Assembly (NCBI GenBank): GCA_036675505.1
Contig: JAKFEW010000058.1
Location: forward strand, 7,516-71,515
Source of the DNA: Candidatus Sericytochromatia bacterium
GTDB lineage: Bacteria; Cyanobacteriota; Sericytochromatia; S15B-MN24; JAQBPE01
Length of the DNA stretch: 64,000 bases
Direction: 5' to 3'
Every line of letters starts with the position of its first letter. Within the stretch, counting starts at the first letter, position 1. The position numbers and the translations under genes are program-made. Below are positions 5,943-42,857 of this stretch, piece by piece. Under the pieces are notes generated by a model. That model saw only the letters and a list, made by a program, of their open reading frames with translations. It was not told the origin of the DNA and searched no databases.

Positions 5943-6077
5943 GGTCACACGGGACGCGGGGGTGGGGGCACCCCTTCTTTCCCGCCCGCCGCGCGGGGCA
6001 AACCCCACCTGTGGCGAGCTCCGCCCGTCTGCTACAATGGCTCGCCCGTCACCCAGGGCGGGCCCATTGCCGAGGAG

Positions 6078-6854: not shown

Positions 6855-6898
6855 CTTCCGCCTCGCTCTGGAGGCATCTTCTCATACCAGGACACCAA

Positions 6899-6935
6899 GC
6901 CCCTTCCCCAGGTGGGTTAGTGGAAGGGGTGTGGC
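6899..6935. repeat. Degenerate/truncated copy of the 45-bp TIR repeat (ccccttccccaGGTGGGTTaGTGGaaGGGGtg)
   Basis: Aligns to the repeat family found at 11428, 26305, 26420, 36807 and 43579 with an internal deletion. It sits at the boundary between the high-GC region and the low-GC island. Confidence 0.4.
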
Positions 6936-7218
6936 CAAAGCGCGCAATACCCAAGATACCCTCGCATCAGCCGCCTGATTGGCGTAGCGGCGTTCTTGGT
7001 CTCGCTTGATTCGGAATAATTTGAACACGTCGGTCTCGGCGGTGGCGCAAGACCGGATCTGCATGGTGCCTGGGCGGGCATCTGCCCAGGCCGACCCGAC
7101 CGCACTACTCCATGCCAACGAACAGCAAGTGGCCCTCAGGAAGCCCGTGGCCTCGGTCAGTCCGAATCCACGCGCCGGCTCCCATAGACCACTGAGGCCA
7201 CCAGATTTTAAGGAGTCG

Positions 7219-7662
7219 TCATTCCGATCGCGCGAGCGCGACGGGGATCGCTGCCACAAGGTCTTCCAGTCGATCGGGAACAACTAGGTTCTCGGCCGGA
7301 GTGAATTTGAAGCCCTCGCGTGCGCCGGCATTCCGGGTGGGTGTGAGCGTAATAGCGCCGTCGGCCAGAATGAGATCTACGTATCGTGTGCCCTTCATGA
7401 AGGTCGCCCAGGACTTTACGTTTGCCGCGTCGAGCACTGGCTGGAACAAGATCTTGTACTGCTCCTGCGACGGTTGAGGCGCATCGTAAACCGAAGCCGA
7501 GAGGGCCTCACGGACCTTCGATGCGATGGTAATCGCATCTACTGCCCCCTCCTCGATGACCATTACAGGGACACCAGAAACCCAGATTCCCTTGGTCGTT
7601 CGATGATTCGGGAGGATGAAAAGGAATGATCCTCGTTGGTAAAGCGATGCGCCTTTTTTCAT
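7219..7662 (-). CDS. Hypothetical protein (147 aa) in the low-GC island
   Basis: ORF with ATG at 7662. It lies 10 nt downstream of the preceding gene's stop. No recognisable family. Confidence 0.4.
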   Translation of the reverse strand: MKKGASLYQRGSFLFILPNHRTTKGIWVSGVPVMVIEEGAVDAITIASKVREALSASVYDAPQPSQEQYKILFQPVLDAANVKSWATFMKGTRYVDLILADGAITLTPTRNAGAREGFKFTPAENLVVPDRLEDLVAAIPVALARSE

Positions 7663-7671
7663 TTTTCGCCT

Positions 7672-8235
7672 CTACGGGAAAACAAAGAACCGAACCGTGA
7701 CACCTAGTCGCGCTGCTTCCTGGATCGCTTGATTGACCACTAATTGTTGCTCAGCACTGGGTATCCTGGGAATTGCGATGTCGAGAGCGCGTCCTGTGAT
7801 TTCACTTGGTTGCACGATCACACCCTTCCAGGCCCGGCCTTCGAACTTTGCGATCGCGTTGATCTGCTTCGCCAACTCGCTCTTCAACTTTGATGGTATC
7901 TGATAGCTGGCCGCATTGAGATCCATCGTCTTGATGCTCGTCGCTATGCCATCCTCCATTCGGTCGATGACCGGGAAGTCGAACGGAAGGTGTGGGGATC
8001 GCCCCAGCGCTTCTTCGATTAGCCTGCCGCGTTCGAGCGGGGGAAGCCCCCAAACGCTGGGCGAGAGACCATGGCCACCTGGCGTCGTAACACCACATGC
8101 CTTTTTTGCGATTCGATCGCGGAACGACGGCGGAATCAGGTCTGCGGCGGCCTTCATTACGAACGGCGCGCCTGCGACAATGATCTTGCCCGCCGCGTAG
8201 CCAGCAGCCAATTCGGCGGCGTCCTGCGGCGTCAT
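7672..8235 (-). CDS. Hypothetical protein (187 aa) in the low-GC island; possibly toxin-like, speculative
   Basis: ATG at 8235 overlaps the stop of the upstream gene by 1 nt (TAATG). No family recognised by eye. Confidence 0.4.
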   Translation of the reverse strand: MTPQDAAELAAGYAAGKIIVAGAPFVMKAAADLIPPSFRDRIAKKACGVTTPGGHGLSPSVWGLPPLERGRLIEEALGRSPHLPFDFPVIDRMEDGIATSIKTMDLNAASYQIPSKLKSELAKQINAIAKFEGRAWKGVIVQPSEITGRALDIAIPRIPSAEQQLVVNQAIQEAARLGVTVRFFVFP

Positions 8236-8783
8236 TAGGAGTACTTGAAGGGCGGGTCGTAGGGTACGGCCTGCAACTTGTAGCCCTGAGCCGCCGGCGT
8301 TGACTCAGCCTGCCGGTAGACGTCCTGCTCGAGCGCATAGATGCTGACAGGGTCGTCGTTCTCCAGGTAGACCCATCCCTCAGGAGTACTGACTGCCAAC
8401 GAGGTGCTGGGGTCGACGCCGGCGCCGTTCAGCGAGGCGGTTGATTGGGACATCTCGAAGGCCTTCAGGTCTACGAGGTCGTCAACCCCATCAGCGCCTA
8501 GCTCGGGCCAGTCGGCGGCCAGTGCATCCCAGACGCTCTGGGAGACGCTCATCAACTTCCGCTTCGGCGCGACAGTAGCTACTGCCTGAAAGGGCGCCTG
8601 CTGTGCCGTCGGTGAAAAACCAGCTTGGCGGTCAGGATGGGCTGCTGACATGAAAGCAACGCCATCGCAAGGAGCAAGGACGTTCCCCGGGAAAACATCC
8701 GGCATGAGGACATGAGCTTTGCTCCATTGTGAAACATCGGTTTTCCCTTGCCGCCGCAGCGGCTCAATTGTCTTCCCCAGCAT
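8235..8783 (-). CDS. Hypothetical protein (182 aa; an acidic C-terminal half) in the low-GC island
   Basis: ATG at 8783. Downstream-coupled to 7672..8235. Start uncertain; an internal Met (MSVSQ…) is also possible. Confidence 0.35.
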   Translation of the reverse strand: MLGKTIEPLRRQGKTDVSQWSKAHVLMPDVFPGNVLAPCDGVAFMSAAHPDRQAGFSPTAQQAPFQAVATVAPKRKLMSVSQSVWDALAADWPELGADGVDDLVDLKAFEMSQSTASLNGAGVDPSTSLAVSTPEGWVYLENDDPVSIYALEQDVYRQAESTPAAQGYKLQAVPYDPPFKYS

Positions 8784-8823
8784 GCCCTTACTCGGCGTAC
8801 CTCAAACCCTTGCTCGGTTAACG

Positions 8824-8974: not shown

Positions 8975-17520
<8,546 letters not shown>

Positions 17521-17524
<4 letters not shown>

Positions 17525-20500
17525 AGCGTGAACTCCTCGAACTCGGCGTCCTCGCCGGCAGGCGGCAGGAAGGTCCAATCGGCCGCGACGTCGGCCGCCG
17601 CAGCGCCGCCCAGCAGCGCCAGCGCCAGCACGTGGCGCGGGCCGAGCGCGAGGTCCGGCGCCACGCGGCCGAAGTCCATCGCGCCGACGGCGCACAGGCC
17701 GAGCCCGGCCGGCGGTGCGGCTTCGCGCAGGATCTGGGCGATCGCGCCGGCCTCGAGCAGCGCGAGGTCGCGGGCGGCCTCGCCGTAGACCGGGGCGATC
17801 GCGTCGAGGTCGCCGATGAGGTAGATGGCGAAGGCCGCGCCGTCGGCGATCGCCCGGTTCATGAAAACATGCACGTCGGGATCGAAGGCCGCGCCCGGCC
17901 GGATCGGCACGAGGCGATGGTCGTCGGGGTGGTGGTAATACGTGCCGCCCGGCAGGTCCGTCACGGCGTCGGGCCTGACCTGCAGGTGGACCTGGACGGG
18001 GTAGAGCGCGCCCGCGGAGCCGTAGCGGAGCTTCGGACGCCCGTCGACGGTCTCGGCGCGCAGGCCGGCGAGCAGCGCGCCGATCGCCGAGAGCGAGATC
18101 GGGCCGGGCCCGAAGACCCGGGCGCTGTGGCCTGTGTGCGCGGAGGCGTCGCCCGCGAGCTGGACGGGCGGCCCGGCCTGCGCCAGCGTGCGCAGCCCGG
18201 GCCTGGCGTTCTTGAAGGCCTCGCGCTCGGCGGGGTCGAGCAGGATCCGCGGCCCGGTCGGGCGCGGCGCGCCGCCGCCGTGCGCCGCATACCAGGCGGC
18301 GACCGCCTCGATGGTCCGCATCCCGAGCAGCTCGGCCATCGCGGGCCGGGCACCCAGATCCTCCTCGAGCCGGTTGGCGAGCCGCACCAGCTCAATCGAG
18401 GCGACGCCGAGCGCGAGCAGGTCGGCGCGCGGGTCGAGGCTCGGCAGGCCGAGGGCCTCCGCGGCCATGGCGGCGAGGCGGGTGACGAGGGCCGGGTCGG
18501 CGGCGGGGTCTGCCGCCTGGGAAGGCGTGGCGGTGGTCTCGGCGAGGGTGGTGAGCGCGCGCCGGTCGACCTTGCCGTTGGGGGTGAGGGGCAGGGCGTC
18601 GAGGGCGTGGAGGGAGGTGGGGACGAGGGCCTCGGGCAGCCGGGCGGCCAGCCACGCCAGCACCCCTTCCCCCTCCGGGTGCCCGACGACGAACGCCACC
18701 AGGCGGCGGGCATGCCGATCCCCCACCGCCACCACCGCCGCCTCGCGCACCGCCGGGTGCCCCGCGAGCGCCGCCTCGATCTCCCCGAGCTCGATCCGCA
18801 CGCCGCGGACCTTCACCTGGTCGTCCTCGCGCCCCAGGAACTCGATCACCACGCCGTCGCCGGCCGGCGCCGGCCGCCAACGGCCGCGATCGCCCGTGCG
18901 GTAGCGCCGCTCGCCGCTCTCGGCGTCGACCACGAACGCCGCGGCGGTCCGCGCCGGATCCCGCCAATACCCTTCGGCCACGCCAGCACCGCCGATGTAG
19001 AGGTCCCCCTCGGCCCACAGCGGCCGGCTCCGGCCGCGCTCATCGCGCACATGGAAAGCCTGGTTCGCCATCGGCCGGCCATACGGCACGCTCGTCCAGC
19101 CGGGCGCGGGCTCACCCGCGTCCTCGCGGATCGACCAGATCGCGGCCTCGGTCGCGCCGCCCAGCGCGACCACGCGGCAGCCGGGCGCATGCGCGCGGAT
19201 GCGGCCCGGCATGTCGACCGGCACCCAGTCGCCGCTCAGCATCGCCGCGCGCAGGCCGGCCGGGAAGGCGTCCGCGCGGCCCTCGGCGTGCGCGAGCAGC
19301 ATCGCCATGAGCGGGGGCGCCGAGTTCCAGACCGTCACCCGGCCCTCGGCCATGCGGGCGGCCCAGGCCGCCGGCTCGCGCGCCTCGCCGGGCGCGAGCG
19401 TCACCACCGCTGCGCCTGCGGCGAGCGGCCCGAAGACGTCCCAGACGGCGAGGTCGAAGCCGGGCGCCGAGAGGGCCAACACGCGGTCCGCGGGGCCGAG
19501 CCCGAGGTCGGCGTTCACGTCAACGATGGTGTTCGCGGCCGCGCGCTGCGCGACGACCACGCCCTTGGGCTCGCCGGTGGAGCCTGAGGTGAAGACGACA
19601 TAGGCCGGCGCCGCCGGCGCGGGGCCCTGCGGCAATGGCACCTCCGCCGCGCCCGCCGCGAGCGCCAGCGGCGCGACGTCCATGACCTCCGCGAGCAGCC
19701 CCTCATCGCCCGCCCGCACCACCGCGGCGCCGGCGCCGGCCAGCGCGAGCAGCTGGGCCCGGCGGGCGGGCGGGGCGGCCGGATCGATCGGCACCCATGG
19801 CACGCCGGCGAGCGACGCGGCGAGGACGCCCACGACGGGCTCCCAGCCGCGATCGACGAGCAGGGCCACCGGCCGGCCGGGGCCGAGGCCGGCGGCGCCC
19901 AGGCGGGCGGCCAGCGCCGACGCCTCGGCACGTAGCGTCGCGTAGTCGAGCGTGCGATCCGGCGCGATCACGGCTGGGGCGTCCGGCCGTTCGGCGGCGC
20001 GGGCCAGGAAGGCCATGTGCAGGGTCTGGGCCGGCATCGGCGCGGCGGTCGAATTGGCGGCGGCGATCGCCCGCGCGTCCGCCGCAGGCAGCGCCACGGC
20101 CACCGGCCGCTCCCAGGTCGCCTCCGGCGCCGCCAGGCCGGTGAGCACGGCGTCGTACGCCGCCGCCAGCGCGTCGAGCACGCCCGGCGCCAGGTGGCCG
20201 TCCACGGCGTCCCAGTGCCACGCGAGCCCGCCTGCCAGCTGCATGACCTGGTGGTCGAGCACCACCTGCGGCGTCTGCGTCAGGGCATGGACCAGCTCGC
20301 CGCCGAGCGGCGACGCCCCCAGGTCGCCCTGATCGAGCACCGAGGTGAACACGACGGGGAAGGCCGCCGGCTCGCCGCGCTGGCGGGCCCATTCGCGCAT
20401 CACCCAGAGGCCACCGGCGTCGGCGTGATCGAGGTCTTCCCAGAGCCGGGCCTGGACCGTGCGGCAGCGCGCGCCGAAGCCGAGGACCTCGGCGTGGTCC

Positions 20501-23500
20501 AGCGCGAGCGGCGTCAGCGTCGTGAAGTCGCCCACCACGCGCTCGACGTCCGGGTGCAACGGGAGGCGTCTGAACGTGGGCAGGTTGAGCGTGAAGGCCG
20601 GCCGCCGCGCCCAGGCCGCGAGCACCTCGCCGAAGGCCGCCAGCACGGCGGCGGTCGGCGAGACGTCATATTCGGCCGCGCGCTCGCGGAAGCGCGCCCA
20701 GGCGTCCGGCGTCAGGCCGCCCGACCGGCGCACGAAGGTGGGCCGGCCGTCCGGCGGCGTCGGCGCGAGCGGCAGCTCGGGCGCTTCCGGCAGCGCGGGC
20801 AGGCGCATGCGCCACCAGTCGCGCGCGGCGGTGACGGCGGCGGCGCCGCTCGCCTCGCGGGCCGCGTCGGCCAGGACGTAGTCGCGGAAGGCGAGGGTCG
20901 GCGCGGATCCCAGCTCCGCGCGCGGATCGCGGTACAGGGCGTCGAGCTCGCGCGCCAGGATGCCCAGGCTCGCCGCGTCGGCCACCAGGGCGTCGAGGCC
21001 GAGGTGCAGCCGCACCACCTCGTCCGGCAGGCGGCTCGCGCGCAGCGCCAGCAGCGGCCAGCGGTCGGCCGGGCGCACCTCATGGGACCATTCCGACCGC
21101 CGATCCGCGAGCGCCTTCGCGCGGTCCGCAGGCGCCAACGGCCGGAGGTCGGCCTCCTCGAGCGGGAACGGCGGGACCGCGGGGAGCACGCGTTGGCGGC
21201 CCCGATCGTCCACCACCGCGCGCAGCATGGGGTGGCGCGCGACGAGCGCGTCAACGGCCGTGCGCAGGCGCTGGAGATCGAGGCCGGGCACGTCGAGCTC
21301 GACGTAGGCGTGCGCGGCGACGCCGCCGCCCGTGAGGCTCGCGTCGCGGCCGACCCAGTAGGCCGCTTGCACGGGCGTGAGCGGGAAGGGCTGATGGGCG
21401 GCGGCCGGATCGGGCAGGAGCGCGACCGCCGCCGCCGCGGGGGCGCTCGCGATCGCCCGCGCCATCCCGGCGACGGTGGGGTCGGCGAAGACGGCCGCGA
21501 GCGGCAGCTCGACGCCGAAGCGATCGCGGACGCGGGTGATCAGGCGCCAGGCGAGGAGCGAATGGCCGCCGAGGGCGAAGAAGCTCGCGCGCCGCCCGAC
21601 GACGGGCACACCGAGGACGTCGGCCCAGAGCGCCTCGACCGCGGCTTCGCGATCGTCCACGGGCTGCTCGACGCCGGCCGGGGCCGGCGGCTCGGGAAGG
21701 GCCCGGCGGTCCACCTTGCCGGCGGAAGAGAGCGGGAGGGCGGTGAGGAGGACGAGCGCGGCGGGGACCATGGCGGCGGGCAGCTGCGCGGCGAGCCACG
21801 GCAAGATCTCTTCCGCGTCCCCCGCAAGAGCGGCCGGAACCTCCGCGCCGGAGGTGGCGAGCGGGTGCAGGACGACGTAGGCCACCAGGCGCTCGGGGTC
21901 GCCCTTCGCCGCCACCGCGCATGCCGCGACGGCCGGATGCGACGCGAGCACCCCCTCGACCTCGCCCGGCTCCACGCGCACGCCGCGCACCTGAACCTGC
22001 GCGTCCACGCGCCCCAGGAACGCCAGCGCCCCGTCCGGCAGCCGGCGCGCGCGATCGCCCGTCCGGTACCACCGCCCGTCGCCCGGCAATTCCACGAAGC
22101 GCGCCGCGGTGAGCGCCTCGTCGCGCCAGTAGCCGAGCGCGACGCCGGCACCGCCGACCCACAGCTCGCCCGGCGCCCCGGCGGGCACCGCGCGGCCGGC
22201 GGCGTCGGCCACCCGCACACGGACGCCCGCGATCGCCCGGCCGATCGCCGGGGCCCCGGCGCCGGCGGCCACTACGTTCCCGGCGGTCGCCTCGTCCCCG
22301 GCGGCCGCCACGTCCCCGGCGGTCGCGACCACCGCGGCCTCGGTCGGGCCATAGTGGTTCACCACGCGGAAAGGCAGGCCCTGTGCCGGCCTGCGGTTCA
22401 GGCGATCGCCCCCCGTCAGCAGCGCGCGCAGCCGCCCGCCCGTCGGCCATGCCAGGCCCAGCACGTGCTCCGCCAGCGCCGTCGGCAAGAAGGCCACCGC
22501 GATCGCGTTCGCCACCAGCCAGGCCGGCCAGGCGTCCGGGTCGGTCGCCGCCGGATCGGGCGCCACCACGAGCGTCGCGCCGGCCGCGAGGGCCGGCCAG
22601 ATCTCCCAGACCGACGCGTCGAAGCCGGGGCTCGCCACCAGCGCCACGCGATCGCCCGCGGCCAGCCCGTAGGCGGCCAGGTGCCAGCCCACCAGGTTGG
22701 CGCGCCCGCCGGCGGAGACCACGACGCCCTTGGGTCGTCCTGTCGAGCCGGAGGTGAAGATCAAGTAGGCAGGTGCCGCCGGCGCCCAGGCGGCATCGCA
22801 GGCCGCCACCACCGAGCCCGCCGGCCCGTCGTGCCAGGCCGCGCGCAATTCAATCACGGGCCCGGCCAGCGCGACCTCGCCGGCCACCAGCGCCACCGGC
22901 GCGCCGAGGTCGGTCGCCATCGCGGCGAGCCGCGCGGCGGGCTGAGCCGGGTCGAGCGGGGCGGCGATCGCGCCCGCGATCGCCGTCGCCAGGTGCGCGA
23001 GCACGAGCTCGGCCGAGCGCGGCGCCACGATCGCGACCGGCACGCCAGGCCCGGCGCCGGCGGCGACGAGCCGGCCCGCGAGCGCGCCTGCCCGGGCGAG
23101 CAGGTCGCCGTAGGTCCAGGTCGTATCGCCGTCCACCACCGCCGGCGCGTCGGCCGGCGCCGCCCGCACGCCCGCCAGCAGGTCGATCGCGGGTGGCGCG
23201 GGCGCCGCGTCCTCGGCCTCGGCCGGCCCCAGCGCGAGGGCACCGAGGGGCGTGTCGGGCGCGTTCGCTCCCGCCGCGAGGACGTGCGTGAATTGGTCCA
23301 TCAGCGCCCGCACGGTCGCGGGCTCCCAGAGCGCCGCGTCGTACTCGGCGATCAGGCGCACGCCGGCGTCGGTCTCGTGCAGGCCGAAGGCGAGATCGAA
23401 CCGCGCGGTGCCCGGGTCCACCTCGACCGGCTCGGCGACCAGCCCGGCCACGACCGGCGCCCGCAGGGGCGCATGCCAGGCGAAGGCCACCTGGAACAGC

Positions 23501-26500
23501 GGCGACGACGCGAGGTCGCGCACCGGCGCGAGCGCCTCGACCAGCCGCTCGAAGGGCACGTCCTGGTTGGCCATCGCGTCGAGCAGGGTCCGTCGCACGC
23601 GTGCGGCCAGCTCGCCGAACGTCGGGTCGCCGGCGAGGTCGCCGCGCACCACCAGCATGTTGAGGAAGCACCCGATCAGCGGCTCGAGGCCGGGGTGGTG
23701 GCGGCCGGAGATCGGCGTGCCGACACAGAGGTCGTCCTGCCCGCTCCAGCGCCCGAGCACCGTCAAGAAGGCCGTGAGCGCGACCATGAAGCGCGTGGCG
23801 CCGGTGGTCCGCCCGAAGGTGTCGGCCGCCGCGACCGCAGCCGGCGGCAGCCAGGCGGCGAGGGTCGCCCCGCGGCCGGTCCGGGCGGCCGGGCGCGGAT
23901 GATCGGTCGGCAACGCGAGGCGGGCCGGCGCGCCGGCCAGCCGCTCGCGCCAATAGGCGAGCTGCGCGTCGAGCGCGGGCGCCTCCCGCGTGGCCTGCTG
24001 CCAGATCGCGTAATCGGCGTACTGCAGCGGCAGTGCCGGCAGCGCGGTCGGATCGCCCACGGGGTAAAGCGCCGCGAGCTCGTGCATCAACACGGCGAGC
24101 GACCAGCCGTCGCCGATCGCGTGGTGGAGCGTGACGCCGAGCAGGTGCTCCTCGGGCGTAAGGCGGATCAAGCTGGCGCGGAACAGCGGGCCCGCCGCGA
24201 GATCGAAGGGCCGGCTGGCTTCGGCGACCAGCCGGGCGCGTGCTTCAGCCTCCGCGACGTCGGCGGGCAGCGCCGCCAGGTCGAGCAGCGGCAGCGGCAG
24301 CGCCGCAGGCGGCGCGATCGCCTGCACCGGCCCGTCCGGCCCCTCGGGCAGCGACGTGCGCAGCGCCTCGTGGCGTGCCGTGATCGCGTCGAGCGTGCGG
24401 CCGAGCGCCACGCGGTCCAGCGGCCCGCGCAGCCGCATCGCGCCCGCCACCTGGTAGCCGGCCGCCCCGGGGGCCAGGCGCTCGAGGAACCACATCCGCC
24501 GCTGCGCGAACGAAGCCGGCACCACCGCGGGGCGGGGCGTCGCGGCCGTCGGCGGCGGCAAGGCCTCGCCGGCCGCCGCCAGCCGGTCCGCGATCTCGCC
24601 GGCGAGCCGGGCCAGGCTCGGCCCCTCGAGCAACAACGCCATCGGCAGCGCCACGCCGAGGTCGCGCCGCACCCGGTTGTTCAGCTCCATGCCCACGAGC
24701 GATCCGACGCCCAGCGTGGTGAGCGGGGCCTCAGGGTCGAGCTTCACCGCCGCCACGTCGAGCAGCCGGCCGAGCTCGCGCGTGAGGGCGTCGCGCAAGG
24801 CCGCGAGCCGCTCGGCACGCGGCAGCGCCCGCAACGCGGCGGCGTCGAGGCCAGGGGAGGGGACATCGAGGCCAGGGACATCGAGGCCGGGGATCCCGCC
24901 ACCGGCACCCGAGCCGGGACCCGACGCGGGGACCACGCGCTCGCCGATCGGCGCGGCGCCCAACGCCCGCAGCGGCGCCGCGGGGCGCTCTTCGAGCCAG
25001 TGGCGCTCTCGGCGCCAGGGATAGGTGGGCAGGTGAACGTGTTCCCCGGCCGGCACGAGCGCGTCCCAGTCGATCACAGCCCCCAACGCCCACAGCGCGC
25101 CGGCCGCCTCGCGCGCCGCGAGCGGCTCGGCGCGGTCCCGGCGGAGCACGCCGATCACGTCCGGCGGCGCGCCGCGCTCGGCGAGCACGTCCGCGACCGC
25201 CGGGGCGAGCGCGGGGTGGGCGGAGAGCTCGAGCACGATCGGCGCTTTTTCGGCGGCGGCGATCGCCGCGACCGCCTCGGCGAGCCGCACCGGCCGGCGC
25301 ATGTTGGCCCACCAGTAGGCCGCGTCGAGCGGGCCTGCGAGCCGCCCGCCGATGACGGTCGACCACATGGGCAGCACCGGCGGCCGCGGCACCACATCCG
25401 CGAGCGCCGCGAGCAGGTCCTCGCGCAGCGGCTCCACGACGGGGCTGTGCGAGGCGACCAGCGTGCCGCGCACCAGCCGGGCGAAGCCGCCCTGCTCCTC
25501 GACCGCGGCGACCACGGCCTCGAGCGCCGCCTGCTCGCCGGCAAGCAGCGTCTGGCGGGGGCCGTTCACGGCGGCGATCCAGGCGCGGTCGGCGTGGGGG
25601 GCGATCGCCGCCAGCGCCTCGGCCTCGGACAAGGCCACGGCCGCCACGGTGCCCGCGCCGGCCATCGTCTGCATGATCCGCGCCCGCCGCGCGACCACGC
25701 GGCAGGCGTCGTCGAGCGTGAGGCCGCCGGCCGCCCAGGCCGCGGCGATCTCGCCGAGGCTGCCGCCCACCACGGCGGTCGGCGTCACGCCCCAGCTGCG
25801 CAGGAGCGCGGTGAGGCCGACCTGGAGAGCGAATTGCAGGGGCTGGGCGACGTCACCGCGCTGCCAGCGTGCGTCGCCGCCGTCCGAAGCCATCGCGTCG
25901 AGCAACGACCAGGCACCCAGCTCCCCCTCGGCGAGGAAGGGGGCGATCGCCGCATCCACCTCGGCCACGGCCGCGCGGAACGCCGGCTCGGCCAGCAGCT
26001 CGCGACCCATCCCGGCGCGCTGGGCGCCCATGCCGGGATAGAGGAACACGATCGGCCGGGCGCGGCCGGCCGCGCGGGCGAAGCCCGTGGGATCCGCGTC
26101 CGCCACGTCCGCGAGGCGCGCGAGCAGGCCATCGCGGTCGGCGGCGGCGATCGCGCGGCGGATCGGCAGGTGGGCACGGCGGCGCAGGGCCGTGTGGCAG
26201 ACGTCGGCGGGGACGAGGGCAGGGTCGGCCGCGAGGGCGGCGTGCAGGCGGCGGGCGAGGGCGGCCAGGGCCGCGGGGTCGCGGGCGGAGAGGGGCAGCA
26301 CCAGCACCCTTTCCCTCTCCGGGTGGGTTCGTGGGGGGGCTGGAAATGGGGAGAGGTCCCCGCAGGGGGGTGAGGGGGCTCTCGGCGCCTGGAAAGCCTC
26401 CCCACACCCACTCCGTGGGAGCTCCCCTCCTTTCCAGCCGCCCCACGAACCCACCCCGGGAGCAAAAGGGTGCTCCAGGATCACATGGCAATTCGTCCCC

Positions 26501-27810
26501 GCGAACCCGAACGCGCTGACGCCCGCCACCCGCGGCCCCGCGGGCCAGGGCCCGGCCTCCTGCTGCAAGGCCAGCCCCAGCGCCTCGAACGCGATCCGCC
26601 CGCTCGGCGGGTCCCCATGCAACGTCGCCGGAATCACCCCGTGCCGCAGCGCCAGCGCCGCCTTGATCAGCCCCGCCACGCCGGCGGCCGCCTCCAGGTG
26701 GCCCAGGTTGCTCTTCACGGCGCCCAGCCGCAGCGCCCGGTCGGCCGGACGGCCCGTGCCCAACACGGCCCCCAGCGCGGCCGCCTCGATCGGGTCGCCG
26801 AGCGGCGTGCCCGTGCCATGCGCCTCCACGTACGCCAAGTCGCCGGTCGCCACGCCCGCGTCGCGGCAGGCCGCCGCGAGCAGCGCCCGCTGGCCAGCCG
26901 GGTTCGGCGCGGTGATGCCGTTGGTCCGGCCGTCCTGGTTGATCGCGCCGCCGCGCACCACCGCGTAGACGTCGTCGCCGTCGGCGCGGGCCTGCGCCAG
27001 CGGTTTCAAAACCACGATGCCCACGCCCTCGCCGCGCACCATGCCGTCCGCCCCTTCGCCGAACGCGGCGCAGCGGCCGGCCGGCGAGGTGGCCAGGGCC
27101 TGGGCGAAGCCGATGTGCAGCGCCGGCGAGAGGATCACGTTGACGCCGCCCGCGAGCGCGAGCGTGCACTCGCCGGACCAGATCGCCCGGCAGGCCGTGA
27201 GCACCGCCACCAGCGACGCCGAGCACGCCGTGTCGAGCACCAGGCTCGGCCCGCGCAGGTCGAGGTGGTAGGAGATGCGGTTGGCGATCGCGCAGGCCGC
27301 CGCGCCCGCGTTCGTGTGCATATCGACAGCGTCCGGGTCGCGCAGCGCCCGCTGGGCGTAGTCCGCGCTCGCGACGCCCATGAAGACCCCGGCCGCGCTG
27401 CCCGAGAGCGCATCCAGCGCCACGCCCGCATCCTCCAGCGCCTCGACGGCCACCTCGAGCGCGAGCCGCTGCTGCGGGTCCATCGCCGCCGCCTCGCCGG
27501 GCGAGATGCCGAAGTAGCGCGCGTCGAACAGGTCGACGCGGTCCAGGAAGCCGCCCCGTGGGCTGTTCGTCCGCCCCGGCATCGCCGGCCGCGGGTCGTA
27601 CAGCGCGCCCTGATCCCAGCGATCCGCCGGCACCTCGCCGACCGCGTCGCGGCCCTCGACGAGCAGCTGCCAGAACGCCGCGGGGCCGTCCGCGCCCGGG
27701 AAGCGGCAGCCGATCCCGACGATCGCGATCGGCTCCCGGCCATACACCTCGGACTCCCGCCCGGTCACGGCCGGATCCAGTCCCGCCTCGGCAGGCTCGC
27801 GCGCGCTCAC
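17521..27810 (-). CDS. Hybrid PKS-NRPS megasynthase 1: KS-AT-ACP, C-A-PCP, Cy-A(Cys)-PCP-Ox (3429 aa)
   Basis: GTG at 27810 overlaps the TGA of the LLM gene. Motifs: DTACSAS + HGTGT (KS), GGSLGE + VASHS (AT), GVGSL (ACP), HHAIGDGWS (C), [12 protein letters not shown] (A), [10 protein letters not shown] (PCP), [14 protein letters not shown] + DALVADAAS (Cy, DxxxxDxxS), [12 protein letters not shown] + FDLAVWD (A), a C-terminal McbC/nitroreductase-like FMN oxidase. Confidence 0.9.
17524..18258 (-). other. C-terminal FMN-dependent oxidase (Ox) domain, McbC/SagB/nitroreductase-like; predicted thiazoline to thiazole
   Basis: About 245 aa after PCP2. [26 protein letters not shown] and [10 protein letters not shown] resemble Ox domains of thiazole-forming NRPS (EpoB/MtaD/BlmIII type). 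Acidic C-terminal tail [10 protein letters not shown] may be a docking peptide. Confidence 0.6.
18286..18498 (-). other. PCP domain 2, megasynthase 1
   Basis: [23 protein letters not shown] (variant GxxS carrier motif). Confidence 0.5.
18541..20013 (-). other. Adenylation domain 2 (Cys-type), megasynthase 1
   Basis: [24 protein letters not shown] (the FDLSVYD block typical of Cy-module A domains). [12 protein letters not shown] gives I330 W331 as in the Cys code [43 protein letters not shown]. Confidence 0.65.
20041..21390 (-). other. Heterocyclization (Cy) domain, megasynthase 1
   Basis: N-terminal [15 protein letters not shown]. Core [16 protein letters not shown] (DxxxxDxxS in place of HHxxxDG). 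Confidence 0.7.
21436..21663 (-). other. PCP domain 1, megasynthase 1
   Basis: [17 protein letters not shown]. Confidence 0.7.
21691..23178 (-). other. Adenylation domain 1, megasynthase 1; specificity undetermined, D235 A236 W239 … V330 V331 looks Glu/Gln-like and is not committed
   Basis: [80 protein letters not shown]. Confidence 0.6.
23221..24528 (-). other. Condensation domain, megasynthase 1
   Basis: [12 protein letters not shown]…HHAIGDGWS. Confidence 0.7.
24586..24813 (-). other. ACP domain, megasynthase 1
   Basis: [24 protein letters not shown] (Ser in the GVGSL context). Confidence 0.55.
25171..26055 (-). other. Acyltransferase domain, megasynthase 1; variant active site GGSLG instead of GHSxG; VASH motif suggests a (2S)-methylmalonyl-type extender
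   Basis: [38 protein letters not shown]. Confidence 0.6.
26305..26476. mobile_element. MITE-like composite repeat (about 172 bp) bounded by inverted copies of the 45-bp TIR, inserted in-frame in the KS-AT linker of megasynthase 1 (aa ~448-502)
   Basis: Forward TIR 26306-26357 (caccctttccctctccGGGTGGGTTCGTGGGGGGGCTGGAAAtgggg). Inverted TIR 26420-26472 (…ccagccgCCCCACGAACCCACCCCgggagcaaaagggtgctc). The internal segment shares ggagaggtcCCCGCAGGGGGGTGAGGGGGcTCTC with the element at 43579. Translated as [53 protein letters not shown] with no stop. Confidence 0.6.
26470..27732 (-). other. Ketosynthase domain, megasynthase 1 (condensing, Cys present)
   Basis: [49 protein letters not shown]. Ends …[11 protein letters not shown] at aa 447. 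Confidence 0.75.
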
Positions 27811-29045
27811 GGCGTGACCCCCCAGGTGCGGGCCAGGCGGTCGATGCGGCCCAGGCTCGCGAGCACCTCATCGAGCCCGAGGCCCCAATCGACCAGGCAG
27901 CCGATTTCGTCGACGCCCGCGGCATGCAACCGCGCCGCCATCGCGCGGCCGTCGGCCTCGTCGCCCAGCAGCGCCGAGCCCGCCCACCAGCGCTCGAAGG
28001 CGTGATCCAGCAGGGCCTCGCGGTCCGCAGCCGGCAGGGCGGAAAGGTCGAGCGTCGCGCCGAGCGCGGCCGCCAAGGGCCCGAGCAGCTCGAGCGAGCC
28101 GCCCAGGTATTGCAGGAATGGCGCGCGCACATAGGCCTTGGTCGCCTCGCGTTCAGGCCCGAGGTAGGCGTGCACCATGGCGGTGACCCGGCCGGGCCCC
28201 GCGTGGCCGGCCGCCGCGCGCGCGGCCCGGTAGCGCGCGATCTTCGCGCCGAGCTCGTCGACCGACTGGCCGAGCAAGCAGGTCAGCACGTTCACGCCTT
28301 CCGCGCCCGCGGCCTCGAAGGTGGCCGGGTTGCCCATGGCCGTCAGCCAGGTCGGCAGCTCGGCAGTGAGCGGCCGCGGTCGGGTGCGCACGGCGATCTC
28401 GGCCCCCGCACCGTTGCGCCGCCGCAGGGCGTCGCCGCGCCACAGCGCGCGCACCTCGGCCATGCCCGCGAGCGCGGCCTCGCGCCGGTCGGCGTACCGG
28501 TCCGGGGCGAAGACGAAGTCGTCGGCGTGCCAGCCCGCGGCGAAGGCCAGGCCCACGCGGCCGCCGGCGAGCCGGTCGACCATCGCCCACTCCTCGGCGA
28601 CCCGCAGCGAATCGTGCAGCGCCGGCACCACCGAGCCCGCGCGCAGGGCCACACGGGTGGTGCGCGTGGCGATCGCCGCCGCCGCGACCGCCGGGTTCGG
28701 GAAGAGCCCGCCGAGCGCGTGGAAGTGCCGCTCCGGCAGCCAGACGGCCTCGAAGGCGTGCCTGTCCGCGAACTCGGCCGCGGCCAGCATGAACGCGTAG
28801 CCGCCGTCCGCGGCCTCCTCGTCGGCGGAGAAGAAGAACACGCTGAACGTCGGGCCGGTCGCGGCCGCGGCCGGCGCCTGGCGTCCGATCAGCGCCACCA
28901 GCTCGTCCTTGTGAGCGGCGAGCGCCGCGCGCAACGTCTCGTCGAGGGCCCCGCGCGGGGCGCTCAACCGCAACGCGCCGTCCTCCAGCGCCACGCGCGC
29001 GCCGCGCAGCGCGAGCTGGGCCAACAGCGCCTCGGCCCCGGTCAT
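27807..29045 (-). CDS. Stand-alone luciferase-like monooxygenase (LLM, bacterial luciferase/flavin-dependent oxidoreductase family) with an N-terminal TubC-like docking domain
   Basis: ATG at 29045 (MTGAEALLAQ…). N-terminus EALLAQLALRGARVALEDGALRLSAPRGALDETLRAALAAHKDELVALI parallels the docking domain of megasynthase 2. LLM core TFSVFFFSADEE…AFEAVWLPERHF…GRVGLAFAAGWH. Its stop overlaps the GTG start of megasynthase 1. Confidence 0.8.
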   Translation of the reverse strand: MTGAEALLAQLALRGARVALEDGALRLSAPRGALDETLRAALAAHKDELVALIGRQAPAAAATGPTFSVFFFSADEEAADGGYAFMLAAAEFADRHAFEAVWLPERHFHALGGLFPNPAVAAAAIATRTTRVALRAGSVVPALHDSLRVAEEWAMVDRLAGGRVGLAFAAGWHADDFVFAPDRYADRREAALAGMAEVRALWRGDALRRRNGAGAEIAVRTRPRPLTAELPTWLTAMGNPATFEAAGAEGVNVLTCLLGQSVDELGAKIARYRAARAAAGHAGPGRVTAMVHAYLGPEREATKAYVRAPFLQYLGGSLELLGPLAAALGATLDLSALPAADREALLDHAFERWWAGSALLGDEADGRAMAARLHAAGVDEIGCLVDWGLGLDEVLASLGRIDRLARTWGVTP

Positions 29046-29064
29046 GCCCCTGCCTCCGCTGCCG

Positions 29065-29300
29065 TCACGCGCCGGCCCCCGCGAGGTGGTCGGCGAGCCG
29101 CCGCGGGGTCGGGAACTCCCAGAGCAGCGTCGGGTCGAGCCGCCGCCCCAGCAGCTCCTCGAGCTCGCCGGAGATCGCGACGGCCTCGAGCGAGCCGAGG
29201 CCGAGCTCCGCGAACGGCGCTTCCGCATCCACCGCCTGCACGGCCAGGCTCATTTCGGCCGCGACGCGGGCCACCAGCCAATCCTCGAGCTCGGCGGCGG

Positions 29301-29304
<4 letters not shown>
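29065..29304 (-). CDS. Stand-alone acyl carrier protein
   Basis: 79 aa. LGLGSLEAVAISGELEELLG carrier motif. GTG start overlaps the FAAL stop (GTGA). Confidence 0.75.
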
Positions 29305-31013
<1,709 letters not shown>

Positions 31014-31824: not shown

Positions 31825-32054
31825 TGCGGACCTCCTGTGTCCTAGGACACTATTTCCATCGGCGTTGTCGGGGACGACTTGATGCCGAGTCGAAAATTTA
31901 TTTTCCGTGCGGGTCTTCTTGGGTCCATCTTCGCGCAGTCGGCTGACACGGGTGCTGACACGCGGCTGTGATCCTTCGGTCGGTTTCATGTCATCCGACG
32001 AGCGAACGGCCGGTTCGGTTCCCTCGGTCGGGCGAGCGGGAATACCAATGGCGC

Positions 32055-33605
32055 ATGCCCGATCAGACCCCCCAAGCCCGCCTCGCCGCCCTCGAAGCCG
32101 CCCGAACCCGGGCGGCGGCCGGGATGGGCCCCGAGGCGATCGCCAGGCAGCACGCGCGCGGCAAGCAGACCGCGCGCGAGCGCGTCGAGGGCCTGCTCGA
32201 CCCCGGCAGCTTCATCGAGCTCGATCGCTACCGCGTCCACCGCAGCCACGACTTCGGCCTCGCCGACAAGCGCATCCCCGGCGACGGCGTGATCACGGGC
32301 CAGGGGTTGATCGCAGGCCGCCTCGTCTATATCTTCGCCCACGACTTCACGGTCTTCGGCGGCAGCCTCGGCGAGGTCTACGCCGAGAAGATCTGCAAGG
32401 TGCAGGACGCCGCCTACCGCGACGGCGCGCCCTGCATCGGCCTCTACGACTCGGGCGGGGCGCGGATCCAGGAGGGCATCGAGGCGCTCTCGGGCTACGT
32501 CGACGTCTGCTTCCGCAACGTGCGCAACTCGGGCGTGATTCCCCAGATCACCGCGATCATGGGCCCCTGCGCGGGCGGCGCCGTCTACTCCACCTCGCTG
32601 TCCGACTTCACGATCATGGTGCGCGGCACGAGCTACATGTACGTGACCGGCCCGGACGTCGTGAAGACGGTGCTGCACGAGGAAGCCACGCACGAGGAGC
32701 TGGGCGGCGCGGACGTGCACGACGCGATCACGGGCGTGGCGTCGCTGGTCGTGGACGACGACGACGCGGCGCTCGCCGCGATCCGCGCGCTGCTCGCGCT
32801 GCTGCCGTCCAACAACCTCACCGACGCGCCCGTCGTGTCCTGCGACGACCCGGCCGACCGGCGGGAAGACGCCCTGCTCGCTCTCATGCCGGACCGCGCG
32901 TCGGTCCCGCTCGACATGCCCGCGCTCGTCCGCCTGGTCGTCGACGACGGCGCGCTCTTCGAGCTGCAGCCGGGCTACGCGCCCAACCTCCTTACGGCCT
33001 TCGCGCGCCTCGACGGCCACACCGTGGGCGTCGTGGCGAACGACGCGCGCCACCTGGCGGGCACGCTCGACATCGCGGCCTCGCTCAAGGCCAGCCGTTT
33101 CGTGCGCTTCTGCGATGCCTTCAACGTGCCGATCGTGACCTTCGTCGACACGCCGGGCTACTTCCCGGGCAAGGACCAGGAGTATGGCGGCATCATCCGG
33201 CACGGCGCCAAGCTGGCCTACGCCTATTGCGAGGCCACGGTGCCCAAGCTGACGGTCGTCGTGCGCAAGGCCTACGGCGGCGCCTACGGCTCGATGGGCG
33301 CGAAGAACACCCAGGTGGACGCCTGTGTGGCCTGGCCGACGGCCGAGATCGCGGTGCTGGGCGCTGAGAGCGCGGCCAGCGTGCTCTACCGGCGCGAGCT
33401 CGCCGAGGCGCCGGAGCGGCGCGAGGAGCTGCTCGAGGCCTACCGCGCGCGCTTCGCGACGCCCTGGCAGGCCGCCGAGCATGGCTACGTCGACGACGTG
33501 ATCGATCCGCGCGATACGCGCCCGTACTTGATCCGGACGCTGGCCACGCTCAGGCGGAAGCGCGTGGAAACCCCGCCGCGCAAGCACTCATCGATGCCGC
33601 TTTAG
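32055..33605 (+). CDS. pccB: Acyl-CoA carboxylase carboxyltransferase beta subunit (propionyl-CoA carboxylase / methylmalonyl-CoA carboxyltransferase family)
   Basis: 516 aa from ATG at 32055. QGLIAGRLVYIFAHDFTVFGGSLGEV…GPCAGGAVYS…carboxyltransferase fold. Likely supplies (methyl)malonyl-CoA extender for the adjacent PKS. Confidence 0.85.
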   Translation: MPDQTPQARLAALEAARTRAAAGMGPEAIARQHARGKQTARERVEGLLDPGSFIELDRYRVHRSHDFGLADKRIPGDGVITGQGLIAGRLVYIFAHDFTVFGGSLGEVYAEKICKVQDAAYRDGAPCIGLYDSGGARIQEGIEALSGYVDVCFRNVRNSGVIPQITAIMGPCAGGAVYSTSLSDFTIMVRGTSYMYVTGPDVVKTVLHEEATHEELGGADVHDAITGVASLVVDDDDAALAAIRALLALLPSNNLTDAPVVSCDDPADRREDALLALMPDRASVPLDMPALVRLVVDDGALFELQPGYAPNLLTAFARLDGHTVGVVANDARHLAGTLDIAASLKASRFVRFCDAFNVPIVTFVDTPGYFPGKDQEYGGIIRHGAKLAYAYCEATVPKLTVVVRKAYGGAYGSMGAKNTQVDACVAWPTAEIAVLGAESAASVLYRRELAEAPERREELLEAYRARFATPWQAAEHGYVDDVIDPRDTRPYLIRTLATLRRKRVETPPRKHSSMPL

Positions 33606-34522: not shown

Positions 34523-35245
34523 TTAACAGTCATCGCACACGGCGGCTGGCAGCGTCCAGGGCTGCACGACGAGCGCGTCGTCGCGCACGGCGACCGCGCC
34601 CGTGACGTCCGGCGCGAGGGTCAGGTCGGCGATCGCCCAGTGCCGCCCGTCCAGCGCCACGACCCGCGTCCCCGGCGGCCCCACGCCCACCTCGGCGGTG
34701 GTGGGCTCGATCGCGAGGCCGCCGCCATGCGCCTTGAGCAGCGCCTCCTTGCGCGTCCAGGCCCGGAAGAAGGCGGGCAGGCGGTCGGCCGACGCCAGGT
34801 CCTGCCAGGCGGCATGCTCGCTCGGGCCCAACGTGTGCGCCGCGAGCGACGCGAGGTCGGGGAGCTCGCGCCGCGGCTCGACGTCCACGCCCACCGGCGG
34901 CCCGGCGGTGAACGCCACCAGCGCCCAGTCGCCCGCATGGCTCAGGCTGAACGGCAGCCCGCCGCCCGCGAGCCGCGGCTTGCCGCCGGGCGCGACCTGA
35001 AAGGCCAGGGCGTCGGGATCACGGTCCTCGTAGGCGGCGAGCAGCGCGCGCAACGCGCGGCGCGCGGCGACCCAACGCCTGCGATCGGGCGCGAAGTGGA
35101 AGGCCGCGGCGCGCGCACGCTCGGCCTCGTCCAGCCAGCCGAGCGGCGGCTCGACCTCGAGGGCGAGCGCCACGCGCCAGACATGCACCTCACCGGTCAT
35201 GATCGGGGGCGGCGGCCAGGCCGCTGGCCAGTCGGCGCGGCTCAT
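34523..35245 (-). CDS. Sfp-type 4'-phosphopantetheinyl transferase
   Basis: 240 aa from ATG at 35245, which overlaps the TE II stop (ATGA). Motifs FSLSHAGDWALVA, VGVDVE, WTRKEALLKAHG. Confidence 0.85.
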   Translation of the reverse strand: MSRADWPAAWPPPPIMTGEVHVWRVALALEVEPPLGWLDEAERARAAAFHFAPDRRRWVAARRALRALLAAYEDRDPDALAFQVAPGGKPRLAGGGLPFSLSHAGDWALVAFTAGPPVGVDVEPRRELPDLASLAAHTLGPSEHAAWQDLASADRLPAFFRAWTRKEALLKAHGGGLAIEPTTAEVGVGPPGTRVVALDGRHWAIADLTLAPDVTGAVAVRDDALVVQPWTLPAAVCDDC

Positions 35246-35991
35246 GGCCGATCCGGGCCGAGCAGGGCGGCGATCGCCTCGACGACCGCCGGCGCGGCGC
35301 CGCCCGCGAAGGGGAAGAAGTGATCGCCGGGGAAAAGCGCGCAGGTGAACGGGCCCCGCGTGACGGCCGCCCATTCGCCCATCTCGCCATGAGGCGCCGC
35401 CCGATCCGCGAGGCCCGCGAGCGCGGTCACGGGGAGCGCGAGCTGTGCGGGCGCGTGGTCCACGTAGGTCGCCGCGAGCTTGAAATCCGCGCGCAGCACG
35501 GGCATCACCAGCGCCATGATCTCCTCGCTCGCGAGCACCGCGGCCGGCGTGCCCCCCAGCAGGCGCAGGCGCTCGGCGATCGCGGCATCCGGCATCGCGT
35601 CCGGGTCGTCCCAGCGCACGCGTGCAGGCGGGCGACAGCCCGACACCACCAGCGCCTGCGGCCCCCCCGCGTGGCGTCGCGCGCGGGCGAGCTCGAGCGC
35701 CGCCAGCGCGCCGAGGCTGTGGCCCCACAGCGTGTAGGGCGCGTCGGCCAGCGCATCCAGGGCCTCGCAGGCGCCGGCCAGCCAGGCCGGCCAGTCGCGC
35801 ACCGGCGGCTCCGCGAGCCGGGCCTCACGACCGGGCGGCGTCAGCACCCACAGCTCCGCGCGGCCCAGGAGCGCAGCGGCCCAGGGGCGGTAGGGGATCG
35901 CGCCTGCGCCGGCGTGCGGCGCGACGACCAGCCGCGGCAGATCAGGGCGCGCCGCGCTGAGCCGCCGGATCCATCGCCCCGCGGAGGCCAC
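35242..35991 (-). CDS. Type II (editing) thioesterase
   Basis: 249 aa. GHSLGALAALE nucleophile elbow. alpha/beta hydrolase. C-terminal His (GDHFF). Confidence 0.85.
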   Translation of the reverse strand: MASAGRWIRRLSAARPDLPRLVVAPHAGAGAIPYRPWAAALLGRAELWVLTPPGREARLAEPPVRDWPAWLAGACEALDALADAPYTLWGHSLGALAALELARARRHAGGPQALVVSGCRPPARVRWDDPDAMPDAAIAERLRLLGGTPAAVLASEEIMALVMPVLRADFKLAATYVDHAPAQLALPVTALAGLADRAAPHGEMGEWAAVTRGPFTCALFPGDHFFPFAGGAAPAVVEAIAALLGPDRP

Positions 35992-36800: not shown

Positions 36801-36806
36801 AGGTTT

Positions 36807-36843
36807 CCCGGTTGGGGTGGGTGGGTGGGGCGGCTGGAAGGAG
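36807..36843. repeat. Diverged copy of the TIR repeat (cccGGTTGGGGTGGGTGGGTGGGGCGGCTGGAAggag) immediately upstream of the lipoprotein start
   Basis: Aligns to GGGTGGGTTCGTGGGGGAGCTGGAAAG of the other copies. Confidence 0.4.
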
Positions 36844-36999
36844 CGCAGCGACTGAAGTATCATCATTGATCTCCACCTGGTTTGTCGTTCAACACCCAGA
36901 TTGGCTGTCTTATCATCGCCTTATTGCGAGGTGAAATCTGGGTTAATGGGCCGGTTCAGCGACGCCTCACGCGCGTATCGCAGGTGGTACCATGGCGCC

Positions 37000-42260: not shown

Positions 42261-42857
42261 TCACGAGGCGGTCGGCGGCTCCCCGTCGCCGGCCCATGGC
42301 CGGAGACGCGGCAGGAGCGCAGGGACCGCCCGGCAATAGGCGTCCCACTCGGCGCCGAACGCCTCGGCCAGCATCGATTCCTCGACCCGCACGCGCCAGG
42401 CCAGGGCAGGCGCGTAAACCACCGGCACGAGCGCGGCCGCGGCCACGGAACCGAACAACAAGGGCAGCGCCGCCACCCAGCAAGCGGATCCGAGGTACGC
42501 AGGATGGCGCAACCGTGCATACAGCCCGCGCGTGACGAGGCGGTGGCCCTCGCGCAGCTCGACGAGCGGCGAGAAGTGCTCGTCGAGCGTGGCGACCGCG
42601 GCCAGGCGCAGCGCGAAGCCCAGCGCGAACAGCGCGACGCCCACCGCCGGCGCCCAGGCCGGCTCCGGCCAAACGCCTGGCGCGAAAGCCAGCTCAAGGA
42701 CGCCGGCGGCGAGCACGGCATGCCAGGCCGCCACGAGCGCGGCGGCGCTGCCCTGGTCGCGCCGGCCACCGCCAGCGCGCGCCGCGCGCAAGGCGCCGAG
42801 CTGGGCGATCGTCATCAAGACGGCGAGCGCGACGCCGAAGATCGCGAAACCGCTCAC
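42261..42857 (-). CDS. Isoprenylcysteine carboxyl methyltransferase / phospholipid methyltransferase family membrane protein
   Basis: LVTRGLYARLRHPAYLGS motif. Proposed GTG start at 42857 overlaps the TGA of the HD-GYP gene (GTGA). An alternative ATG exists at 42812. Confidence 0.55.
   Translation of the reverse strand: MSGFAIFGVALAVLMTIAQLGALRAARAGGGRRDQGSAAALVAAWHAVLAAGVLELAFAPGVWPEPAWAPAVGVALFALGFALRLAAVATLDEHFSPLVELREGHRLVTRGLYARLRHPAYLGSACWVAALPLLFGSVAAAALVPVVYAPALAWRVRVEESMLAEAFGAEWDAYCRAVPALLPRLRPWAGDGEPPTAS

Follow-up and report, generated by a model that had tools for sequence, protein, structure and literature searches.

A 64,000-nt stretch of contig JAKFEW010000058.1 from a Candidatus Sericytochromatia metagenome-assembled genome (MAG), referred to below in its entirety as the window, carries copies of a short repeat both between genes and, in frame, inside two megasynthase genes. 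We regard these copies as probable members of a lineage-specific family of non-coding palindromic repeats of a Sericytochromatia genome that spread at the DNA level. The Sericytochromatia are the basal, uncultured, non-photosynthetic sister class of the photosynthetic cyanobacteria, and our literature search surfaced no paper on repeat families of this class. The family appears to be new and restricted to its lineage; its behavior resembles that of the Rickettsia palindromic elements (RPEs), and in kind it would be an element already known.

The repeat unit and its copies in the window

The basic unit is a module of ~57 nt, CACCCtTTCCCTCTcc-GGGTGGGTTCGTGGGGGAGCTGGAA-AGAGGGGAAGGGTG, present as four copies at three loci of the window (nhmmer, E<=1e-14). 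Its consensus, derived from blastn alignments and from a profile of the four good copies, is GCACCC(t)TTCCCTCTcc - GGGTGGGTTCGTGGGGGAGCTGGAA - AGAGGGGAAGGGTGC, and the module ends are GCACCC and GGGTGC. The units of the family measure 168 nt and 57-78 nt and occur at the three window loci and at one further locus in a subtilase gene (P0241, see below). The copies in the window, including two doubtful ones, are as follows:

26305-26472: element A, full-length near-palindrome of 168 nt (56 codons), with the ends CACCC...GGGTG
26303-26360, plus strand: left module of element A (nhmmer E=5e-17)
26417-26474, minus strand: right, inverted module of element A (nhmmer E=9e-16)
11428-11486, plus strand: profile match of module B, a solo module in the gene PKS2 (nhmmer E=9e-16)
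11429-11485, plus strand (PKS2 lies on the minus strand): module B insert, 57 nt (19 codons), residues 2071-2089
43578-43630, minus strand: module part of copy C (nhmmer E=9e-15)
43578-43655, minus strand: copy C, truncated, consisting of the module at 43578-43630 and a 25-nt extension common to the arms of A
6899-6935 (match 6900-6923), plus strand: doubtful diverged copy downstream of a GDPD gene (E=0.015, 11 bits)
36804-36849 (match 36814-36839), plus strand: doubtful diverged copy D (E=0.12, strong composition bias)

Searched with nhmmer, the four-module profile returned precisely those four (E 5e-17 to 9e-15); on 64 kb of DNA from syntenic regions of relatives, its best match had an E of only 1.4. 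The 17-nt core GGGTGGGTTCGTGGGGG is found at 11447 (plus), 26321 (plus), 26440 (minus, one mismatch) and 43601 (minus), with a fifth site at 36815 that has three mismatches. At up to three mismatches, five sites were therefore present against 0.35 expected, and none of 100 shuffles gave five. Over 48 nt, the coding module B matches the intergenic copy C at 94% identity (blastn), and the DNA identity between the coding copies and the intergenic copy is 83-94% over 41-58 nt. The inverted arms of element A (26303-26377 and 26400-26474, 75 nt each) are 79% complementary and form the terminal inverted repeats of the full-length unit.

An earlier reading of these letters without database searches, here called the sequence-only reading, had described an inverted motif pair bounding an element near 26305, a solo copy near 11428 and at least six motif copies in 64 kb. 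The inverted pair is recovered as the near-palindrome at 26305-26472 with its 75-nt arms (79% complementary), and the solo copy as a 57-nt module with E=9e-16. As for the number of copies, four hold at E<=1e-14, and those at 6900-6923 (E=0.015) and 36814-36839 (E=0.12) are marginal. At the site of copy D, positions 36808-36831 of the plus strand form a canonical G-quadruplex-type run, GGGGTGGGTGGGTGGGG, and not a clear repeat; a lipoprotein gene of the minus strand (MIPLRSVLGLLLASTLLTAC) has its ATG (36800) 8 nt away from this run.

Among the repeat units, only the doublet forms a strong hairpin. Element A folds to -69.7 kcal/mol as single-stranded DNA (z -7.8) and to -137.9 kcal/mol as RNA in the mRNA sense (z -8.9), and the solo modules are no better folded than shuffled sequences (z -1.4, +1.3 and +0.5). 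To either side of the core, copy C runs collinear with the arms of A: one flank shares ACCCTTTCCCTC... and the other ...GGAGAGGT-CCGCAGGGG-GGTGAGGGGG-CT, and none of 2000 shuffles equaled the similarity of the latter extension. The 26-nt core itself is oppositely oriented in A (26321-26346) and C (43592-43617), in a flip/flop-like manner. Inversion of the core via the short inverted stems of the module, by template switching or recombination, would explain this arrangement, which is represented by one flipped copy.

In-frame copies in two megasynthases and a subtilase

Element A and module B are situated in two large minus-strand genes of polyketide synthase (PKS) type:

17521-27810, minus strand: PKS1, longest open reading frame (ORF) of 3429 aa, host of element A
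8975-17695, minus strand: PKS2, longest ORF of 2906 aa, host of module B

According to Pfam, PKS1 comprises a ketosynthase (KS), an acyltransferase (AT), three PP-binding (carrier) stretches, a nitroreductase (oxidase) domain and two stretches each of condensation and adenylation type; the KS active-site motif DTACSAS is present and its Cys is kept. Element A begins on a codon boundary and corresponds to codons 447-502. The Pfam model of the KS-AT linker ends at residue 447, and the CurL-like_PKS_C linker model begins at residue 504. The structures of Lsd14 (7s6b) and DEBS M5 (2hg4) align to PKS1 until HVILE and then again from PLSARD; the distance between these two motifs is 18 residues in Lsd14, about 8 in DEBS M5 and 58 in PKS1, and homologues have 6-47 residues in the loop corresponding to the site of A. 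In an AlphaFold2 model of PKS1 residues 1-930 (41 sequences; mean pLDDT 89, pTM 0.84), residues 451-498 are the sole internal stretch with pLDDT<50, the N-terminus also being low, and are modelled as coil between the strands 440-446 and 503-509. The insert is thus predicted to be a disordered extra loop in a confident KS-AT fold.

PKS2 has the Pfam domain order C-A-PCP-KS-AT-KR-ACP-TE. Module B directly follows its post-AT motif, the point at which the alignment with DEBS module 1 (7m7j) stops. The sites of both A and B are inter-domain loops whose length varies among homologues.

A further copy was detected through its translation. As the query, the 11 stop-free frames among the six-frame translations of A and of B were concatenated, which left out one frame of A that contains a stop; the sole protein match (E=3e-7) was P0241, a subtilase lipoprotein of 536 aa that is a singleton at NCBI and is encoded on a 241-kb contig. 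Its residues ~35-97 are collinear with the entire element A, alternating between the +1 and +2 frames of A, and the core orientation is that of A. Judged from this alignment, P0241 holds what appears to be a second full-length doublet, in frame, in an unrelated gene, at a position in the tether that follows the lipoprotein signal peptide.

Is the similarity between the inserts that of Gly- and Pro-rich linkers, or does it reside in the DNA itself? The GC content at the three codon positions distinguishes the inserts from their host genes:

Element A, codon GC1/2/3: 0.71/0.71/0.68
PKS1 without A, codon GC1/2/3: 0.82/0.57/0.94
Module B, codon GC1/2/3: 0.53/0.63/0.74
PKS2, codon GC1/2/3: 0.83/0.59/0.92

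Of all 56-codon windows of PKS1, element A has the lowest GC3 (0.68); the next lowest value is 0.82 and the mean is 0.94. Both inserts begin at a codon boundary and have a length divisible by three (168 nt for A and 57 nt for B), and on either side of each insert the series of domains goes on in frame. Translation of the copies uses differing frames, and the peptides in PKS1, PKS2 and P0241 differ (that of P0241 includes GGVVGGLERE). Since the copies are read in different frames, the repeat exists at the DNA level and no peptide is conserved. Together, the codon boundaries, the flat codon-position GC, the frame differences and the identity between B and C exclude linker convergence. At the level of sequence, it is therefore well supported that A and B represent insertions of non-coding repeat DNA.

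These results agree with most of what the sequence-only reading had said of the coding copies. It placed the first in the KS-AT linker of a PKS, where the linker models are indeed split at residues 447 and 504, and the second in the linker after the AT and before the KR of the second megasynthase, where B adjoins the post-AT motif. The stop-free translation of both copies was reproduced together with the quoted peptides. Its view that coding and intergenic sites share one DNA family is confirmed by the 94% identity of B and C over 48 nt and by the difference in frames, and the alternative that it named, convergence of GC-rich linkers, is contradicted by the non-coding codon GC, the frame differences and the DNA identity of coding and intergenic copies.

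Five of the six frames of A and all six of B are open (shuffle P 0.016 and 0.021), which is suggestive of a depletion of stop triplets, both copies having been ascertained as coding. A 'His-Pro, phase 0' start shared by all coding copies was considered and rejected: it is true for A and B only, and the back-translated P0241 copy seems to begin in another phase.

The hppA spacer and the genomic context

Copy C is located between hppA and the gene downstream of it:

43750-45966, minus strand: hppA, membrane pyrophosphatase
43672-43749, minus strand: 3' stretch native to hppA, holding the two strongest hairpins of the spacer, outside the repeat (fold z -8.3)
42854-43576, minus strand: HD_5/HD-domain gene (Pfam) downstream of hppA

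HppA is the marker by which the window is placed in Candidatus Sericytochromatia; a myxobacterial origin is rejected, despite the GC content of 66-80% and the TubC-type docking domain. The protein is identical to an NCBI entry (P0121), its nearest named relatives are from Candidatus Sericytochromatia MAGs (82-83% identity), and the closest relative is encoded on a Sericytochromatia contig of the European Nucleotide Archive (ENA; 86% identity). The gene order GGDEF - hppA - HD gene is kept in three relatives (L001-L003), in which the hppA-HD spacers measure 97, 113 and 54 nt, all without the module, compared with 173 nt in the window. The start of the HD gene (ATG at 43576) was set by homology, MTTFSDW in the window versus MTSFSDW in L001, and copy C stops 4 nt short of it. 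On the minus strand, the spacer consists, in order, of the hppA stop, a small hairpin, a 15-bp hairpin followed by TTTCC, GGTGAGGGGGTCTC, a further hairpin arm, the extension, the module, TTCC and the ATG of the HD gene.

The 78 nt at 43672-43749 align with positions 9560-9633 of the module-free L001 spacer (76% identity). Stem compensation is seen after hppA, with GAAAGCCCACCAGGC/GCCTGGTGGGCTTTC in the window versus GAAACGCCCCGAGC/GCTCGGGGCGTTTC in L001. The hairpins at 43683-43741 and at L001 9565-9625 have fully compensatory stem changes and an identical GCAG loop. This pattern, read from the aligned sequences, suggests that hppA has a conserved RNA structure at its 3' end, although one with only a 3-T tail. 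Because the hairpins are common to the module-free L001 spacer, they are native and not repeat-borne. Moreover, no hairpin after hppA passed the terminator scan, and element-borne terminators, which were considered as an explanation for these structures, are ruled out by both the L001 alignment and the scan. The sequence-only reading had drawn a 173-bp element at 43577-43749 that supplied terminator hairpins; this has to be corrected on both counts, as only about 43578-43655 is repeat-derived, the distal 78 nt are hppA's own hairpins, and the terminator scan is negative.

The copy C region has GGAAAGAGGGAAAGGG where L001 has a clean GGAGG. Copy C may therefore serve as the ribosome-binding region of the HD gene, a role that would be plausible for this copy only. 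In addition, a hairpin with a perfect 14-bp stem, GGTGAGGGGGTCTC ... GAGACCCCCTCACC, spans positions 43642-43681; of its arms, one belongs to the repeat extension and the other aligns to the native L001 spacer sequence GGTGAGGAGGCT. From the sequence, this suggests insertion beside, or homogenization with, a look-alike native sequence.

Both coding copies of the window lie in a hybrid nonribosomal peptide synthetase (NRPS)-PKS cluster of the Sericytochromatia MAG that extends over window positions 8975-36000. In addition to PKS1 and PKS2, its genes include the following:

27807-29228: luciferase-like monooxygenase with a TubC docking domain
29301-31013: FAAL-like AMP-binding gene
31968-33605: carboxyltransferase
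34523-35728: phosphopantetheinyl transferase (PPTase)

No orthologues of the cluster with more than 57% identity were found in the protein collection. The GC content of the window ranges from 66 to 80%, with 77% in the cluster and 68-70% elsewhere. GC3 is equal in cluster and core genes (0.94), and the excess is confined to codon positions 1 and 2; because GC3 is equal, the excess is attributable to amino-acid composition. Horizontal transfer, considered on the basis of the higher GC of the cluster, was rejected for the same reason.

Two further regions of the window deserve mention. Tandem 24-nt (8-codon) coding repeats at 56886-57050 encode a periodic segment rich in Ala, Gly, Leu and Asn. 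Positions 6000-8800 form a low-GC patch (62%) with an ORF resembling a contact-dependent inhibition (CDI)-toxin restriction endonuclease (7672-8235) and an adjacent ORF without a family match; this patch may be a toxin/immunity islet beside the biosynthetic cluster.

Origin of the family and its relation to known elements

The full-length unit of the family is a near-palindrome of ~170 nt, in which two ~57-nt modules in inverted orientation, each extended by ~25 nt, enclose a short center; the bare 57-nt module and the truncated arm are shorter derivatives. If the repeats are, as we consider probable, a non-coding family spread at the DNA level, the family would presumably have spread as a non-autonomous element, mobilized in trans now or formerly, and its copies would have landed between genes and within genes. 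The intragenic copies that survived would be those that added whole codons, had no stop in the frame read and occupied structurally permissive loops, namely, in PKS1, the loop that joins the final strand of the KS to the initial strand of the KS-AT linker domain; in PKS2, the loop that directly follows the post-AT linker; and in the subtilase, the tether behind the signal peptide. Incidental translation would yield disordered peptides rich in Gly, Pro, Ser and Trp and leave the flanking domains intact. The intact frames of 2906 and 3429 codons and the retained KS Cys of PKS1 suggest that the megasynthases may still work. Mobility or transposition of the family is something that we infer from the distribution of its copies.

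Several observations weigh against this interpretation. No convincing target-site duplication was seen: the edges of A show an imperfect CTGGAG/CTGGTG pair, identical at 5/6 positions, those of B have no comparable pair, and only two complete junction pairs can be compared. No transposase, RAYT (REP-associated tyrosine transposase) or insertion sequence (IS) was found among the window ORFs scanned with Pfam. The description as a miniature inverted-repeat transposable element (MITE) or mobile repeat in the sequence-only reading consequently stands as regards the in-frame linker location, and it falls short in that neither a convincing target-site duplication, nor a parent IS or RAYT within the window, nor an empty site in a close relative was found. 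Complementarity between the two arms of A is just 79%, so that this copy would be old or was never perfect. L001 is only 86% identical in HppA, and its empty spacer is weak evidence of recent insertion. P0241 likely comes from the same genome as the window, an assignment that we infer. An RNA hairpin of -138 kcal/mol within an ORF could also impair full-length expression.

To these observations must be added the lack, beside the protein match P0241, of any copy in the public collections searched. Exact-pattern scans with the 26-nt degenerate core gave 0 matches in GTDB representative genomes and 0 in JGI metagenomes, and a relaxed 23-nt pattern (21 specified bases) gave 0 in JGI metagenomes and 0 in IMG/VR. 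The bare 16-mer returned at least 118 single chance matches in genomes, with flank identity of at most 18/41 among the matches listed. Element A had no blastn match among the PLSDB plasmids, no Rfam family matched the repeat at gathering thresholds, and phmmer with one frame of A against 1.84 billion protein representatives gave no match. PKS1 orthologues with more than 57% identity were likewise not found in the protein collection (the best reached 46% over the full length and 55-57% over half). The matches listed there for PKS1 were no longer than 1575 aa, and PKS1 itself was returned neither by a 900-aa query nor by an exact 62-aa query; proteins of megasynthase size thus seem to escape retrieval there, and any in-frame copies that they contain would have been overlooked.

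Among known systems, the RPEs offer the closest functional parallel. They are palindromes of ~100-150 bp, often inserted in frame in unrelated ORFs, at sites where the peptide is judged compatible with the fold, and in-frame palindromic inserts are their hallmark, being sporadic for other MITEs (PMC10969869). The family described here shares with them the palindromic unit, the open frames, the loop positions and three in-frame coding copies at fold-compatible sites (PKS1, PKS2 and the subtilase P0241). It differs in its host, a high-GC, free-living member of the Sericytochromatia instead of a reduced alphaproteobacterium; in its targets, which include PKS/NRPS inter-domain linkers; in the frames of its copies, whereas RPE families encode a conserved peptide; and in the absence of the CGTC end tag of RPEs (PMC3733652), and by host phylum and end sequence it would be unrelated to RPE-1 to RPE-10. 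Repetitive extragenic palindromic sequences (REPs) have a stem of 5-13 bp, a loop of 2-20 nt and a GTAG/CGTC tag, often come with a RAYT and include intragenic cases documented in many species (PMC3733652). REPINs are inverted REP doublets (PMC3116915, PMC3337134). The spaced inverted doublets with a long single-stranded DNA hairpin, the singlets beside them and the mosaic layout recall REPINs, REPs and BIMEs (bacterial interspersed mosaic elements). Unlike REPs, the module found here is ~57 nt long, has a long asymmetric loop, forms no significant hairpin alone and lacks GTAG, and three of the five loci are intragenic. By analogy, the family would work like RPEs and be organized like REPINs, the REP-specific tests (tag and single-module hairpin) having failed. 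Cyanobacterial MITEs such as Nezha and those disrupting mcy in Anabaena are small inverted-repeat elements in NRPS/PKS genes (PMC10969869). The mcy MITEs inactivate the cluster, whereas A and B preserve the reading frame and occupy linkers; the family has no sequence similarity to Nezha or the mcy MITEs, and no clear target-site duplication is seen here.

How, then, did the copies arise? A classical MITE, that is, a deletion derivative of a DDE-type IS in which the unit ends are terminal inverted repeats and the short copies are solo ends, would account for the size (~170 bp, below ~500 bp), the long inverted ends, the multiple copies, the presence of the full-length unit at two loci and the non-coding codon-position GC. 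We consider this origin unlikely: neither A nor B has a clear target-site duplication, the 64 kb contain no parent IS, and the palindrome spans the whole unit as 75-nt arms instead of being limited to short terminal repeats. The absence of target-site duplications is what IS200/IS605-type chemistry is expected to leave, and a strict REPIN/REP family, whose doublets replicate while the singlets are decayed and whose single-stranded DNA hairpins are moved by a single-copy IS200/IS605-type RAYT encoded elsewhere in the genome, would also agree with the inverted doublet as the repeated unit in A and the collinear P0241 copy. The layout of doublet and singlets and the strong single-stranded doublet hairpin fit the REPIN description (PMC3116915, PMC3337134), and intragenic REPs are documented (PMC3733652). 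Nevertheless, this origin seems quite improbable, as the fold of single modules is not significant (z -1.4 to +1.3), neither GTAG nor CGTC tags the end of a module, the module loop of 26-29 nt exceeds the 2-20 nt tabulated for REPs (PMC3733652) and no RAYT was seen among the window ORFs scanned.

Other explanations dispense with a transposon-like history. The repeat could be a functional cis-element (protein-binding, G-quadruplex-prone or acting as an RNA structure) duplicated by recombination or template switching, with the coding copies as by-products. The core GGGTGGGTTCGTGGGGG is rich in G-tracts, copy C adjoins a start codon, as does the doubtful D, which is no established member, and the core is inverted between collinear copies, as template switching or inverted-repeat recombination would produce. 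We nonetheless give this little credence: C and the marginal D differ in orientation to the downstream gene, Rfam has no match, relatives with the same gene order have no module, and three of the five known loci are within unrelated ORFs. The inverted 26-nt core also recalls the flip/flop forms left by hairpin-primed replication, and an element of a new kind, propagated through hairpins and adapted to persist within ORFs, would fit the absence of target-site duplications and the scarcity of stops in nearly all six frames; we regard it as a similarly remote prospect. If it were true, homology seeded at the KS-linker and post-AT boundaries could drive the shuffling of megasynthase modules or domains. 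Convergence of Gly/Pro-rich, GC-rich linkers or an artefact of metagenome assembly at a repeat is scarcely conceivable. In its favor, the sequence comes from a MAG, and loops from the KS to the linker vary by nature and have low complexity. Against it, the inserts share 83-94% DNA identity over 41-58 nt with an intergenic copy while being read in different frames, have non-coding codon-position GC, and are followed on both flanks by the same domain series in frame.

The probable interpretation, a palindromic family spread at the DNA level, would extend in-frame insertion of palindromic repeats, best known from Rickettsia, to the Sericytochromatia. For genome annotation, such inserts matter in that they split linker domain models and interrupt local alignments to homologues, which then fall into two parts. 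Should the cluster be functional, it would constitute a natural tolerance test, with 56 and 19 extra residues accommodated at the KS/KS-AT-linker junction and directly behind the post-AT linker, boundaries used in AT-swap engineering.

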